From the IMG/VR virus record IMGVR_UViG_3300037455_000372, positions 11,710-75,709 of that record: DNA of 64,000 nt. One strand, 5' to 3'. A program made the translations under genes and the position numbers. The notes under the pieces were generated by a model. That model was given only the letters and a program-made list of their open reading frames with translations, made no database searches and was not told the origin of the DNA. How positions within the stretch are numbered: position 1 is the first letter of the stretch; each line of letters opens with the position of its first letter. The stretch comes from a virus (Duplodnaviria > Heunggongvirae > Uroviricota > Caudoviricetes). Of the stretch, positions 58,925 to 59,969 are shown one piece after another.

Positions 58925-59098
58925 TAGTGGGTCCTCCAGGATTCGAACCTGAGCTATTCCACGGTTTTAGATAACCAGGAAACGAGAGTTACCAGCTCCC
59001 GCCCGTCTCTCCAATTAAGATTTCGTTAGGTCTCCATAATAGCGTTCAGATATAACGGTTGGTGGCCGTCATCGTTCCGCGTTCTATTGACTTTATCC
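58925..59098 (-). ncRNA. ~174-nt tRNA-like element: canonical T-arm TCAGG-TTCGAAT-CCTGG plus acceptor 3' strand AGGACCC; the complementary 5' strand GGGTACT lies ~170 nt upstream
   Basis: hand fold; candidates are an intervening-sequence-containing tRNA, a degenerate tRNA, or another RNA. Confidence 0.3.
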
Positions 59099-59129
59099 TA
59101 CTCCCATTTCAACGGCAGAGTACCCATAA

Positions 59130-59202
59130 GTTTGTTAGTGCCGCCGGGAGGTATCGAACCTCCGACGCGTAGATCTTCAATCTACCGCTCTACCAACTGA
59201 GC
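59130..59202 (-). tRNA. tRNA-Phe (anticodon GAA)
   Basis: acceptor GCCGCTG/CGGCGGC, anticodon arm GTAGA-TTGAAGA-TCTAC, T-arm GGAGG-TTCGATA-CCTCC. Confidence 0.65.
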
Positions 59203-59210
59203 TACAGCGG

Positions 59211-59284
59211 CATAATTAGTCCTCACCCTTGGACTCGAACCAAGAACCTCCGCCTTATCAGAGCGACTATCTAACCAATTGATA
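59211..59284 (-). tRNA. tRNA-Ile (anticodon GAT)
   Basis: acceptor CCTCATC/GGTGAGG, anticodon arm TCGCT-CTGATAA-GGCGG (two GU), T-arm CTTGG-TTCGAGT-CCAAG. Confidence 0.55.
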
Positions 59285-59293
59285 TAGATGAGG

Positions 59294-59365
59294 AAAATTA
59301 GTAGTCCCGCCCGGATTCGAACCGGGGTCCTCGCATAGAAAGTGCGATGGCTTAAACCGCTGGCC
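59294..59365 (-). tRNA. tRNA-Glu (anticodon TTC)
   Basis: acceptor GTCCCGT/GCGGGAC, anticodon arm TCGCA-CTTTCTA-TGCGA, T-arm CCCGG-TTCGAAT-CCGGG. Confidence 0.6.
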
Positions 59366-59374
59366 GACGGGACC

Positions 59375-59451
59375 ATATTTTAGTAGTCACTGAGAGGCTC
59401 GAACTCCCGACCTTCGCGTTCGTAGCGCGACGCTCTTAAATCCGACTGAGC
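59375..59451 (-). tRNA. tRNA-Arg (anticodon ACG)
   Basis: acceptor GGTCACT/AGTGACT, anticodon arm TCGCG-CTACGAA-CGCGA, T-arm GGGAG-TTCGAGC-CTCTC. Confidence 0.6.
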
Positions 59452-59456
59452 TAAGT

Positions 59457-59529
59457 GACCATAGTGGAACGCGATGGAATTCGAATCCATAACCTCTTCG
59501 GTGCGAACGAAGTGCTCTACCAGTTGAGC
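59457..59529 (-). tRNA. tRNA-Ala (anticodon CGC) with G3-U70
   Basis: acceptor GGGGGCG/CGCGTTC including G3-U70, anticodon arm CTTCG-TTCGCAC-CGAAG, T-arm ATGGA-TTCGAAT-TCCAT. Confidence 0.5.
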
Positions 59530-59969
59530 TACGCCCCCATAAATTTCGTGGACCGAACTGGACTCGAACCAGCCTCGCCTAGACCCCAGTCCCGGAAGTT
59601 TCACGGTTCCGTCATTGATACTCGGCGTCGGCAACAACGTCGTTGGTATCTGGAAACAGCAACCCATTCCTATCTGTCTAGGCAGTGCCCGTGCTTCTAG
59701 CAGCCCATAAAAAGTAGTGGATACTGACGGGATTCGAACCCGTAAGAACGCTCCATGCCATGGAGGTGCAATTCCATTCTGCCACAGACCCATATAATGG
59801 ACATACGCATTTCGATTGCGTGACCTTTCACATAGTGTGAACGCTCTTCCGACTGAGCTAATGCCCGAAGTTGTTTTTGTTTGCGCCTACACCCCTTGCG
59901 AGGTGCAAGCAAAAGGGTTATCCGAAATGTCAATCTGCCGACAAGCTTCACGAGCTTATCTTGTTTAGT
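59530..59969 (-). ncRNA. ~440-nt region of tRNA-like pieces without complete cloverleafs
   Basis: T-arm + acceptor 3' strand at 59543-59580; perfect T-arm ACGGG-TTCGAAT-CCCGT at ~59715-59735 with palindrome CTCCATGGCATGGAG instead of an anticodon arm; canonical 5' half GGGCATTAGCTCAGTCGGAAGAGCG at ~59825-59850 followed by 6-bp palindrome TTCACA-CTA-TGTGAA; no ORF. Confidence 0.3.

Follow-up and report, generated by a model that had tools for sequence, protein, structure and literature searches.

The window examined here, a stretch of 64,000 nucleotides of DNA from an uncultured large phage, contains a minus-strand operon of about 41 tRNA genes, of which 39 are detected by ARAGORN and 41 by Rfam; every tRNA of the array is encoded on the minus strand. 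Interleaved with these true tRNAs in the same operon are three minus-strand segments of another kind: element A, a tRNA-shaped RNA of 198 nt (58928..59125), element B, an RNA of 158 nt with an alanine-type acceptor and no anticodon (59549..59706), and element C, an Ala-like cloverleaf of 69 nt lacking an anticodon loop (59798..59866). A tRNA-Ala(GGC) gene (59719..59791, minus strand) lies between B and C, and a structured leader (59867..59968, minus strand) lies between tRNA-Ala(UGC) and C. The same elements are found in 21 syntenic related contigs. The junction signals of A, B, and C are those of tRNAs, namely TAT before G1 and CTA, CGA or TTA past the discriminator; CTA follows 27 of 35 array tRNAs, and A has TAT before it and CTA after it, as the array tRNAs have. 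The window also carries genes for an RtcB RNA ligase (38984..40258, minus strand; Pfam RtcB, 2e-59), a second RNA ligase (34962-35663; Pfam RNA_ligase, 2e-13), and a peptidyl-tRNA hydrolase, PTH2 (51139-51576; Pfam PTH2, 4e-10).

Parts of this region had been described from the letters alone, in what is called here the sequence-only reading, as T arms, acceptor strands, and D-arm pieces that do not form complete cloverleafs. These parts are real; they lie on the minus strand and recur in the 21 related contigs with compensatory changes. Their limits, however, needed revision. The 174-nt element placed at 58925..59098 is tRNA-like, but it is really the 198-nt element A (59125..58928), whose covarying 5' acceptor strand is at 59125-59118 and not near 59098. 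The block of about 440 nt at 59530..59969 does contain tRNA-like parts but is not a single unit, as it resolves into B, tRNA-Ala(GGC), C, and a leader of two hairpins. The view that it holds no complete tRNA overlooked tRNA-Ala(GGC), which is called by ARAGORN and scores 34.1 bits with Rfam. This tRNA has an 8-nt 3' acceptor strand, for which a register with one bulge yields G3:U70 and A73, covarying across alleles. Likewise, the segment at 55913..56006 (minus strand), taken for an incomplete cloverleaf, is a complete tRNA-Lys(UUU) of 94 nt (Rfam tRNA, 44.7 bits). Its variable region is enlarged, and its D-loop is expanded by an inserted 18-nt hairpin that follows GG. The relative L011 has a normal 76-nt tRNA-Lys allele in the same slot, with acceptor and T arm unchanged, and the hairpin looks like a retained expansion. 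Among other array members, tRNA-Asn, tRNA-Met, and tRNA-Arg have variable arms of about 20 nt.

Elements A, B, and C are missed by the usual tools. Comparison with the tRNA model RF00005 gave zero matches to any of them even at E up to 10 (criterion, at least 29 bits), and they went uncalled by ARAGORN under its default settings, whether introns were allowed or not. Intron mode at an 85% threshold swamped the window with false calls and was discarded. Matches in the gaps to group I intron, tmRNA, ribozyme, and other Rfam families were at chance level (E up to 10 in local searches; E up to 0.5 window-wide). The sequence-only reading had named the silence of covariance models, together with a lack of stable transcripts, as a ground for giving up these segments. 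Narrowly, silence of the models is what was found, as none of A, B, and C belongs to an Rfam family at E up to 10, but comparative analysis of the related contigs shows conserved structure.

Element A, as read from its sequence, is a predicted complete tRNA skeleton in the style of Sec tRNAs and allo-tRNAs, with an 8/4 or 7/5 acceptor branch. Its acceptor stem is formed by the 5' strand GGGUACU(C) (59125-59118) and a 3' strand at 58936-58929, followed by the discriminator A73 at 58928, which is A73 in all variants. A D-stem (59115-59111 paired with 59007-59003) is followed by a stem-loop (59002-58982) with the loop CUGGUAA (58995-58989), a long variable arm (58981-58957), and a T arm (58951-58937). 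The D arm is noncanonical, as its 5-bp stem closes an inserted domain of 103 nt (59110-59008), whereas a canonical D arm has a stem of 3–4 bp and a D-loop of 7–11 nt with G18 and G19; the ends of this domain are the most conserved portions of A. In an alignment of six distinct variants from about three independent lineages, RNAalifold and pair counts gave 44 pairs with 98.8% of cells paired, 17 of which have changed on both sides. None of 500 shuffles matched this result, and slid controls paired at 48% or less. Folding of the single sequence is uninformative as evidence (z of -0.87, no better than shuffles).

The covariation in A extends to the parts by which a tRNA is recognized. The acceptor varies as U4-A69, A4-U69 or U4.G69 and as U7-A66 or G7-C66, and the 25-nt variable arm has four compensatory pairs. 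The loop CUGGUAA, which presents the Thr triplet GGU, is invariant in the six variants, while its stem of 6–7 bp covaries at 4 of 7 pairs, including 131-149 and 130-150. This is an anticodon-type loop of 7 nt, with C32, U33, GGU, A37, and A38 on a paired stem, as is expected of a tRNA anticodon loop. Both C8-G and U49.G65 are invariant, and the 8/4 and 7/5 drawings of A therefore fit equally well. When the 103-nt domain is deleted in silico, ARAGORN at default settings calls the variant of relative L021 an 8/4 tRNA-Thr(GGU). No other Thr GGU gene was detected in the window by ARAGORN or Rfam. A starts with G1-C72 and G2-C71; the tRNA-Thr genes of the array itself have C2-G71, and since this pair is missing from A its amino-acid identity is uncertain.

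The sequence-only reading had listed intron-containing tRNAs among its possibilities, and this holds for A in so far as the skeleton is interrupted by the 103-nt domain. The interruption, however, lies in the D-loop and not in the anticodon loop, and matches no intron or ribozyme model. Under a splicing explanation an endonuclease or self-cleavage would remove the domain, and RtcB would join the ends to form an 8/4 tRNA-Thr(GGU) of about 95 nt. RtcB belongs to the tRNA-splicing ligase family and is encoded, with the second RNA ligase, 19–24 kb away in the same window; the cloverleaf accepted by ARAGORN in the L021 variant after deletion and the strongly conserved domain ends, as splice or recognition signals would be, are also consistent with excision. 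Even so, splicing of A seems unlikely. The 103-nt insertion, against about 200 nt or more for a group I intron in a tRNA gene, gives no match to intron and ribozyme models at E up to 10, inspection of the A alignment by eye revealed no 3-4-3 bulge-helix-bulge motif at the junctions, and a splicing endonuclease was not found among the approximately 50 window proteins scanned. Moreover, bacterial tRNA introns are known in the anticodon loop and not in the D-loop, and the D-loop hairpin of tRNA-Lys(UUU) in the same array looks retained.

Element B combines an alanine-type acceptor with a body that has no anticodon-type loop. Its acceptor stem (59706-59700 with 59556-59550) contains G3:U70 and ends in A73 at 59549, and both features are invariant across six variants. 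The T arm, GCUGG-UUCGAGU-CCAGU, is at 59573-59557. The D region (59699-59685) is unstructured, with no D stem, and is followed by a helix, P2 (59684-59674 with 59589-59576), that carries an irregular rod (59673-59590) with a tip hairpin at 59642-59623. Five variants of the short form are 92–98% identical, though the alleles of the flanking tRNA-Ala sink to 66–71%. Compensatory change is seen at two P2 pairs and one pair of the tip hairpin, and variation is otherwise scarce; with just these three pairs the internal rod is supported mainly by conservation. Single-sequence folding resembles shuffles (z of -0.66) and is uninformative as evidence. The relatives L007 and L012 have a long form of B, with 227 additional nt inserted after GGAAUG, which totals 385 nt in L007. 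Because five different array backgrounds carry the short form and a single lineage carries the long one, the extra 227 nt look like an insertion.

A minimal or degenerate relative of tmRNA would account for several of these features. In such an explanation B would be charged with alanine and go into stalled ribosomes together with SmpB; the full molecule would be the 385-nt form of L007, and the 158-nt form would be a tag-less one. With G3:U70, A73, a T arm, a stemless D region, and a long helix substituted for the anticodon arm, B has the architecture that the tRNA-like domain of tmRNA has, the long form of L007 is called a tmRNA by ARAGORN once the threshold is cut to 80%, and a PTH2 gene is nearby. 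The explanation is nevertheless improbable. Rfam tmRNA models (RF00023 and RF04321) miss both B in the window and the long form of L007, and no tmRNA is called by ARAGORN with its default settings. A reading frame is missing from the common form of 158 nt. In L007, neither of the candidate tags, AVTSYSAMSKVGNHIGLSTDRFR and ANINECLVRYADRVKALP, finishes in the hydrophobic ..LAA that is usual, and the tag proposed at the 80% threshold is implausible. The restriction of the long form to a single lineage, where its extra 227 nt look inserted, also counts against this explanation.

Element C has a 6-bp acceptor with G3.U70 (59866-59861 with 59804-59799) and A73 at 59798, a canonical D arm (59858-59843), a 5-bp stem with a 5-nt loop (59841-59827), and a T arm with the loop AUCGAAA (59821-59805). 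The cloverleaf was recovered by RNAalifold from 10 variants. Three of the five pairs of the 'anticodon' stem covary, and its loop is 4–6 nt long and not conserved in sequence; the relative L011 has a 70-nt insertion in this loop region. ARAGORN at an 85% threshold labels C as tRNA-Pyl(CUA), which would mean an amber suppressor, and this call was rejected on account of the 4–6-nt loop and its varying sequence between variants. In the relative L006, C has A3-U70 in place of G3.U70, from which it follows that alanylation is not essential for C.

The leader upstream of C consists of an 8-bp hairpin with the loop CGUGA (59960-59940), a conserved single strand, GCAGAUUGACA..UCGG (59939-59910), a 10-bp hairpin with a GNRA loop (59909-59886), and an A-rich tail (59885-59867). 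Across 10 variants, 12 of the 18 pairs of the two hairpins have changed on both sides. In the structure of the whole gap that contains C, pairing holds in 99.5% of cells and compensatory change affects 15 of 38 pairs, a result that none of 500 shuffles reached; the leader folds with a z-score of -2.3, and the gap in its entirety with one of -3.3. A sigma-70 promoter, for which a conserved TTGACA in this gap was considered, was rejected, as none was predicted and the hairpins on either side covary as RNA. A different structured RNA, which had been proposed as one possibility for the odd segments, is what B, C, and the hairpins of this gap have turned out to be.

Two further minus-strand elements lie outside the operon segment described above. 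The pieces noticed earlier at 49320..49480 and 31157..31290 are tRNA-like, and their modules stand in permuted order with matches to the YrlA family below threshold, so that the suggestion of permuted tRNAs is right in spirit for the YrlA-type arrangement of 49324-49461 and of 31189-31246. Y1 (49324..49493, of which 49324-49461 is matched by Rfam) has a T arm, a closed acceptor-like hairpin into which 29 nt are inserted, and a D arm. Around them is a terminal stem of 11 bp, GCGAUAGAAUC / GGUUCUAUCGC, which was read off the sequence and is also predicted by RNAfold. The match of Y1 to the YrlA model is full-length but, at 39.2 bits (E of 4e-5 over the whole window), below the gathering score of 69. 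Y2 (31180..31300, Rfam-matched part 31189-31246) has a stem-loop with the loop CUGAAAC, a T arm, a closed hairpin, and a D arm, with a terminal stem, GGUGCAUA / UAUAUCACC, from reading of the sequence. It matches model positions 27-81 with 33.5 bits (E of 0.002 over the whole window), below the gathering score of 69 and barely higher than the 28–30 bits obtained by tRNA–tRNA junctions in the same array. The YrlA order of elements is present in Y1 and Y2 and absent from A, B, and C. Searches of viral contigs for homologues of Y1 and Y2 returned only unrelated tRNAs with a common T-arm sequence.

These elements raise the question of Ro proteins. B, C or both might be partners of Ro60/Rsr of the Y-RNA type, that is, versions of YrlA with acceptor-stem ends that would serve in RNA quality control or repair with RtcB and not in translation. 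The window has two YrlA-like RNAs and an RtcB gene, and in the relative L021 two YrlA-like RNAs lie directly upstream of a TROVE/Ro gene, beside the same type of tRNA array. In Mycobacterium smegmatis, RNase P cleaves YrlA at its acceptor-like stem, and CCA is added there (PMC4201824). Against this, YrlA matches over A, B, and C are at chance level and fall on tRNA junctions, and a regular-expression search for the Ro-binding motif GNCGAAN0-1G found no match in A, B, gap C, Y1 or Y2. No TROVE domain was detected among the approximately 50 window proteins, and tblastn of the L021 TROVE protein against the window was empty. A role of B or C as Ro partners is given little credence.

Attempts to find homologues beyond the related contigs were negative. 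Nothing matching A, B or C was found in 50,697 GenBank phage records, T4 relatives included; megablast revealed no close relative among cultured phages, and sensitive blastn reached ordinary tRNAs only. A search for cellular homologues in 185,579 species genomes did not find the motifs of C and A. The neighbouring 493-aa protein, used as a route to relatives, led to no viral locus; contigs with an exact copy of this protein all stop at the first tRNA. A single mobile element behind the A domain, the L007 insertion in B, and the L011 insertion in C was considered and rejected, as no mutual or outside similarity held. The sole link for the A domain is that it has short motifs in common with an 82–93-nt element that relatives carry between Lys and Met.

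Decay of tRNA duplicates had also been put forward for these segments. They could be recombination scars left by the traffic of homing endonucleases, either functionless or active only as DNA, serving as promoters or as sites for endonucleases. Mosaicism in the arrays is strong, with alleles at a given slot either 55–75% or 95–100% identical between phages. Free-standing homing-endonuclease genes are found within the arrays, including that of L006, for which segB of T4 is a precedent (PMC2330249), and indels are present among relatives in B (L007), in C (L011), and in the variable arm of A (L021). Yet comparison across the related contigs shows that A, B, and C are conserved at least as well as the functional tRNAs adjacent to them, and their RNA helices are preserved on the transcribed strand by compensatory substitutions. 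No relative that spans the slot of A lacks it, and no promoter-like sites were predicted in the gaps. Decay is accordingly regarded as highly improbable.

Overall, the region is best interpreted, with a probability of about 0.7, as three distinct and conserved putative tRNA-derived RNA genes placed among the real tRNAs of a phage operon. An acceptor/T-arm minihelix of tRNA type is common to all three. In A and C, and with less support in B, compensatory substitutions among related phages preserve the helices. As tRNA-derived genes, A, B, and C would be transcribed together with the tRNAs, their 5' ends would be released by RNase P, and their 3' ends would be produced by the tRNA 3'-end machinery with addition of CCA. 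A would most likely be the Thr GGU isoacceptor that is otherwise absent from the array, with its domain either kept or removed by cleavage and ligation, RtcB being encoded by the phage. If kept, a domain of 103 nt so close to the tRNA elbow might not be accommodated by the ribosome. B and C would be unable to decode and are most likely tRNA mimics that engage tRNA-binding factors. Candidate partners are AlaRS, EF-Tu/SmpB, modification or repair enzymes, and host nucleases that target tRNAs. The two would then belong to a phage island for translation and RNA repair that comprises RtcB, the RNA ligase, PTH2, and the Y-RNA-like RNAs.

A bolder interpretation is that these are working translation RNAs of undescribed design, either with A aminoacylated and used by the ribosome while it carries its domain or with B as a tag-less, tmRNA-like rescue RNA; this is a long shot. 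If A were so used, the 103-nt domain could be where a phage protein takes hold, or it could protect the RNA from host nucleases that target tRNAs. If B were a rescue RNA, alanyl-B would receive the growing peptide at stalled ribosomes, and the product would then be hydrolysed by PTH2 of the phage.

Oversized tRNA look-alikes are a little-explored sort of viral RNA. Phage tRNA arrays are commonly taken as plain cassettes for codon supply, and segments rejected by tRNA finders are ignored; here, conserved and covarying RNA genes sit precisely in such rejected gaps. If they are expressed, the known structural range of tRNA-derived RNAs widens, and they become concrete candidates for the means by which large phages manipulate or protect translation, for example against tRNA-cleaving defence systems. 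For annotation, the 'gaps' of viral tRNA arrays merit comparative analysis. For tRNA engineering, A suggests that the D-loop may tolerate large insertions.

Several known systems resemble parts of this arrangement. By analogy, C resembles mascRNA of the MALAT1/mascRNA pair in lying directly downstream of a structured RNA with an A-rich end, and an RNase P cut at the tRNA-like C would fix the 3' terminus of the RNA that precedes it. That pair, however, belongs to another domain of life and has no homology to C, and the Rfam mascRNA match obtained was at chance level and fell on tRNA-Ala(GGC), not on C. The tRNA cluster of phage T4 contains, between its tRNA genes, two small stable RNAs, species 1 and 2 (rnaC/rnaD), which are not tRNAs and have no assigned function. 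Both are matured from tRNA precursors by the tRNA-processing machinery. Unlike these, A, B, and C are dissimilar in sequence and retain acceptor/T minihelices, and A retains an anticodon-type loop. With the tRNA-like domain of tmRNA (RF00023), B shares the acceptor with G3:U70 and A73, the T arm, the stemless D region, and a long P2, but it has no mRNA-like domain, resume codon, tag or recognisable pseudoknots; at 158 nt it is also much shorter than tmRNA (about 350 nt) and is unmatched by tmRNA covariance models.

The YrlA Y RNAs (Chen et al., 2014, PMC4201824; RF02553) offer a parallel in their tRNA-mimic modules, with a T arm, an acceptor-like stem, and a D arm, and in the RNA-repair genes near them. 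Y1 and Y2 have the permuted order of YrlA, and L021 couples such RNAs with a TROVE gene. In contrast to YrlA, Y1 and Y2 score below the Rfam threshold and lack GNCGAAN0-1G, an rsr gene is absent from the window, and A, B, and C end at an acceptor stem and not at a Ro-binding stem. Mukai et al. (2017, PMC5389517) have reported (8/4) Sec-like tRNAs or allo-tRNAs from phage tRNA clusters and bovine rumen bacteria. A differs from these in that its D-stem encloses a structured domain of 103 nt, whereas that of allo-tRNA ends in a tetraloop, and in having A73 and not G73 or U73, together with a conserved A5.G68 mismatch. It shares with allo-tRNA a long variable arm, an anticodon stem of more than 5 bp, a long D-stem, and an acceptor branch of 12 bp that can be drawn as 8/4 (ARAGORN, domain-deleted construct), with 7/5 fitting equally.

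Three units in the tRNA array of this uncultured large phage, namely element A (59125-58928, minus strand), element B (59706-59549, minus strand) and element C (59866-59798, minus strand), are probably functional tRNA-derived RNAs that are matured like tRNAs and have the anatomies described here; we put the probability at about 0.7. ARAGORN called 39 tRNA genes in the window, all on the minus strand, and Rfam added a Cys-type tRNA (53011-53087) and a 94-nt element (55913-56006), giving 41 tRNAs. The main array runs from 60042 down to approximately 53011, and the stretch 58925-59969, in which the sequence-only reading had noticed incomplete cloverleafs, lies at its start. 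CTA lies directly 3' of the discriminator in 27 of the 35 array tRNAs, so CCA is not encoded in them, and ..TAT precedes many of them, which makes a consistent junction code. Read on the minus strand, the gaps between called tRNAs are discrete units with the same junction code. A small conserved ORF (37 aa, ..NSKLAPAADRPFAYTGCWDARELHR) at 60126-60239 (minus strand) has a homologue in the related contigs L006 and L007. Beyond this ORF, and only approximately 20 nt before the first tRNA, stands a strong hairpin that resembles a terminator and has a U run (60064-60099, minus strand). The array has no evident promoter. Proteins encoded in the window include homing endonucleases, a C5 methylase, an NAD synthase, RtcB (38984-40258, minus strand, 2e-59), an RNA ligase (34962-35663, minus strand, 2e-13) and a PTH2 peptidyl-tRNA hydrolase of archaeal/eukaryotic type (51139-51576, minus strand, 4e-10). 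The last three lie among outlying tRNA genes and form a translation and RNA-repair island.

Exact-pattern scans located two related IMG/VR contigs of 135 and 175 kb (L006 and L007) and 19 metagenome contigs (L008-L026), and in all 21 the array is the same and its order is kept. GenBank phages yielded nothing similar beyond ordinary tRNAs, and no similar sequence was found in 185,579 species genomes. Within a tRNA slot, the alleles of two phages are either 95-100% or only 55-75% identical. Free-standing homing-endonuclease-like genes break the arrays, and the slot they occupy varies from phage to phage (window 57412-58329 and 54261-55505, minus strand; L006 7897-8745; also L015 and L019). The sharp allele classes and these genes point to cassette-like exchange within the arrays. 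T4 segB is likewise a free-standing homing endonuclease that interrupts a tRNA array (PMC2330249). Against this mosaic background the elements are well conserved. In L006 and L009 element A is 100% identical, though their tRNA-Lys and tRNA-Ile are only 64% and 72% identical, and element B keeps 92-98% identity beside tRNA-Ala alleles that share only 66-71%. On one sequence alone the case would be weak, because elements A and B fold no better than shuffles (z -0.87 and -0.66); the gap-C unit does fold better (z -3.3). An Rfam scan of the gaps returned no intron, tmRNA or ribozyme at permissive thresholds.

Element A fills the gap between tRNA-Phe and tRNA-Lys. The sequence-only reading took its 5' end to lie 27 nt inside the true one; the unit is 198 nt rather than 174 nt. 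An RNAalifold alignment of six distinct variants from about three lineages (205 columns) gave a fold of 44 pairs, 98.8% paired, 17 of them with changes on both sides. None of 500 shuffles matched it, and sliding the pairing partners by 1-3 columns dropped pairing to 37-48%. In the acceptor stem, pairs 4 and 7 change in a compensatory way and an A5.G68 mismatch is conserved. Nucleotides 11-15 pair with a strand that lies 110 nt downstream, in a 5-bp helix with three compensatory pairs, and a stem of 6-7 bp with four compensatory pairs comes directly after this helix. The 7-nt loop capping this stem, CUGGUAA, is invariant in the six variants, shows all hallmarks of an anticodon loop (Y32, U33, A37, A38) and reads GGU. 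The array's own tRNA-Thr loops likewise end in ..GUAA, and its Thr isoacceptors are UGU, CGU and AGU, GGU being otherwise missing (ARAGORN). The long variable arm, 12-14 nt shorter in L021 and L023, has four compensatory pairs, and the T arm carries the loop UUCGAAU. The 103 nt that the long-range helix encloses were deleted in silico in 323 deletion variants, which were submitted to ARAGORN at default settings. The domain-deleted L021 variant was called tRNA-Thr(GGU) in 55 of the 323, drawn with the long-range helix as D-stem and with acceptor, T and anticodon stems of 8, 4 and 6 bp. Variants with the longer variable arm received no call after deletion, we think presumably because that arm exceeds the limits of the program. 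The covarying fold, the anticodon-type loop and the call after deletion together identify element A as a tRNA skeleton in the style of the allo-tRNAs and Sec-type tRNAs (PMC5389517), from which it differs in that the D-loop is replaced by a 103-nt domain. The ends of this domain are conserved (GAAAUGG.AGUAGGA.AAAGUCAA and GACCUAACGAA..CUUAA.UGGAGA). It has an invariant base helix, in which UAGG, an A-rich bulge and GUC face GACCUA, a 4-bp hairpin adjoining the D-stem, and a central hairpin that is variable, with covarying pairs. RtcB is encoded in the window, whereas neither an endonuclease nor a ribozyme or splice motif that might remove the domain was found.

The block of approximately 440 nt that had been described as one structure is not a single unit and resolves into element B, tRNA-Ala(GGC) (59719-59791, minus strand; ARAGORN and Rfam), element C and a 100-nt leader with two hairpins. 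The ends of element B pair as an acceptor of 7 bp with G3:U70 and A73, the established alanine identity set, which would mark B as alanine-type. It has a canonical T arm and a 15-nt D region that lacks a stem. Helix P2 (8-9 bp) stands where an anticodon stem would begin and runs on into an irregular rod of approximately 85 nt with a hairpin at its end. Compensatory pairs number two in P2 and one in the tip hairpin, and the remaining pairs are invariant. Five array backgrounds have the 158-nt form, a form with an insertion of 227 nt after GGAAUG (L007 5800-5574, minus strand) occurs in L007, L012 and L025, and seven relatives lack B. The architecture is the same as that of the tRNA-like domain of tmRNA. 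The tmRNA models match neither the 158-nt nor the L007 form. ARAGORN takes the L007 form for a tmRNA only when its threshold is lowered to 80%, and then with an unconvincing tag.

Gap C, which consists of the leader and element C, lies between tRNA-Ala(UGC) and tRNA-Ala(GGC). Its consensus, built from ten variants, has 38 pairs, 99.5% paired, 15 of them compensatory, and was matched by none of 500 shuffles. Hairpin 1 (8 bp, loop CGUGA), the whole stem of which is rewritten compensatorily in L023, is followed by a conserved single strand, and hairpin 2 (10 bp, GNRA loop, seven compensatory pairs) by an A-rich tract. The cloverleaf of element C comes last, with a canonical D arm and a 6-bp acceptor that has G3.U70 in nine of ten variants and A3-U70 in L006. 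The T-arm loop AUCGAAA (A54, A60; 59821-59805, minus strand) is invariant in 21 of 21 copies, and we take it to be the unusual T-loop sequence of eukaryotic initiator tRNAs. A 5-bp stem with three compensatory pairs bears an unconserved loop of only 4-6 nt, so element C cannot decode; this loop also rules out the 'CUA suppressor' suggested by a low-stringency ARAGORN call. L011 carries a 70-nt insertion (354-423) within the loop. This insertion and the 227-nt insertion of B are structured and lineage-specific, and resemble neither each other nor any other compared sequence.

The 94-nt element at 55913-56006, taken earlier for an incomplete Lys-like cloverleaf, proved to be a full tRNA-Lys(UUU) (44.7 bits) in which an inserted hairpin of 18 nt follows the GG of the D-loop. 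The L011 allele in this slot is normal (76 nt), with the same acceptor and T arm. A D-loop insertion is not unique to element A in this phage. Variable regions of approximately 20 nt, unusual for class I tRNAs, were seen in tRNA-Asn(GUU) (58445-58534, 90 nt), tRNA-Met(CAU) (43072-43163, 92 nt) and tRNA-Arg(UCU) (53169-53257, 89 nt), all on the minus strand; a normal tRNA-Asn(GUU) of 74 nt lies at 57338-57411 (ARAGORN). All tRNA-Ala alleles (UGC, GGC and CGC; in the window at 59466-59538, 59719-59791 and 59968-60042, minus strand, and in L006-L026) have an acceptor with 7 nt in the 5' strand and 8 nt in the 3' strand ahead of A73. Seven pairs with G3:U70 and A73 form only if one nucleotide is bulged between pairs 4/5 or 5/6, and in this register pairs 4-7 covary across alleles. 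An acceptor-stem bulge shared by every alanine tRNA of a genome is not known to us.

Upstream of tRNA-Lys(UUU), which starts at 56006, is the mini-ORF MKKLKLKRL* (56067-56038, minus strand; Shine-Dalgarno AGGAGA), of which L007 has the version MKRKCKRL* and L011 the version MKKILKRTRL*. Between this mini-ORF and the tRNA lies the hairpin CAGCUG-ccuau-CAGCUG (approximately 56030-56014), and the arrangement resembles an attenuator or leader peptide of lysine codons inside a tRNA operon. Two further non-tRNA spacers of the array are a 57-nt hairpin element in the tRNA-Asp/tRNA-Val gap (58623-58679, minus strand; z -3.5; 98-100% identical in six relatives) and a 128-nt element between tRNA-Thr and tRNA-Ser (56768-56895, minus strand; 98-99% identical in L011 and L016). 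Elements present in the arrays of relatives and not in the window are Lys-to-Met (82-93 nt; L010, L017) and, in other gaps of L007-L023, Ile-to-Phe (92-96 nt, two types), Met-to-Asp (109 nt), Arg-to-Glu (92 nt) and Asn-to-Tyr (222 nt; L011). The Lys-to-Met element and the inserted domain of A have in common the motifs CUGCNNNAGAAAUG, GACCU and GAAAGUC.

Two further regions had been read as tRNA fragments, and their T and D arms are indeed present, in YrlA-type order. The full Rfam YrlA model matched 49324-49461 (39.2 bits, E 4e-5 over the whole window) and its tRNA-like core matched 31189-31246 (33.5 bits), both below the gathering threshold of 69 bits. Each has a T arm, a closed acceptor-like hairpin and a D arm within a terminal stem. 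Since this model gives 28-30 bits even at junctions between tRNAs of the array, the 31189-31246 match is only marginally better than artefact. The GNCGAAN0-1G motif (PMC4201824) is absent from both RNAs, and the window contains no TROVE gene. L021 carries two YrlA-like RNAs (3206-3106 and 2946-2870, minus strand; 40 and 42.5 bits) and, directly downstream, an ORF (2764-1217, minus strand) for a TROVE-domain (Ro60/Rsr-like) protein of 515 aa; its tRNA array is a few kb away. This arrangement shows that a Ro/Y-RNA module belongs to this phage group; the window has no homolog of the L021 protein.

Elements A, B and C share with the tRNAs a fixed gene order, junction signals and acceptor/T minihelices, and they covary and are conserved. 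All units would be co-transcribed with the tRNAs, RNase P would free the 5' ends, and 3' trimming and CCA addition would complete the 3' ends. The acceptor/T minihelix, kept by all three, is just what these processing enzymes recognise. Element A would most likely be a GGU Thr-type tRNA, its domain retained or removed. Elements B and C, with alanine-type ends and no anticodon, could act only as mimics, possible targets being AlaRS, EF-Tu/SmpB, modification or repair enzymes, or tRNA-attacking host nucleases. Element C may also be an RNase P signal through which the upstream structured leader gets its 3' end. Any one of these cellular roles is far less probable than the tRNA-like origin and maturation of the elements.

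Neither a tRNA skeleton with a D-loop domain of approximately 100 nt nor anticodon-less Ala-type units like B and C are described in a review of non-canonical tRNAs (PMC7609411), the paper on allo-tRNAs (PMC5389517), a survey of structured RNAs in viruses (PMC10690425) or the literature covered by full-text searches. Non-canonical tRNAs, tmRNA and Y RNAs as such are already known. The tRNA cluster of T4 also contains small RNAs of unknown function.
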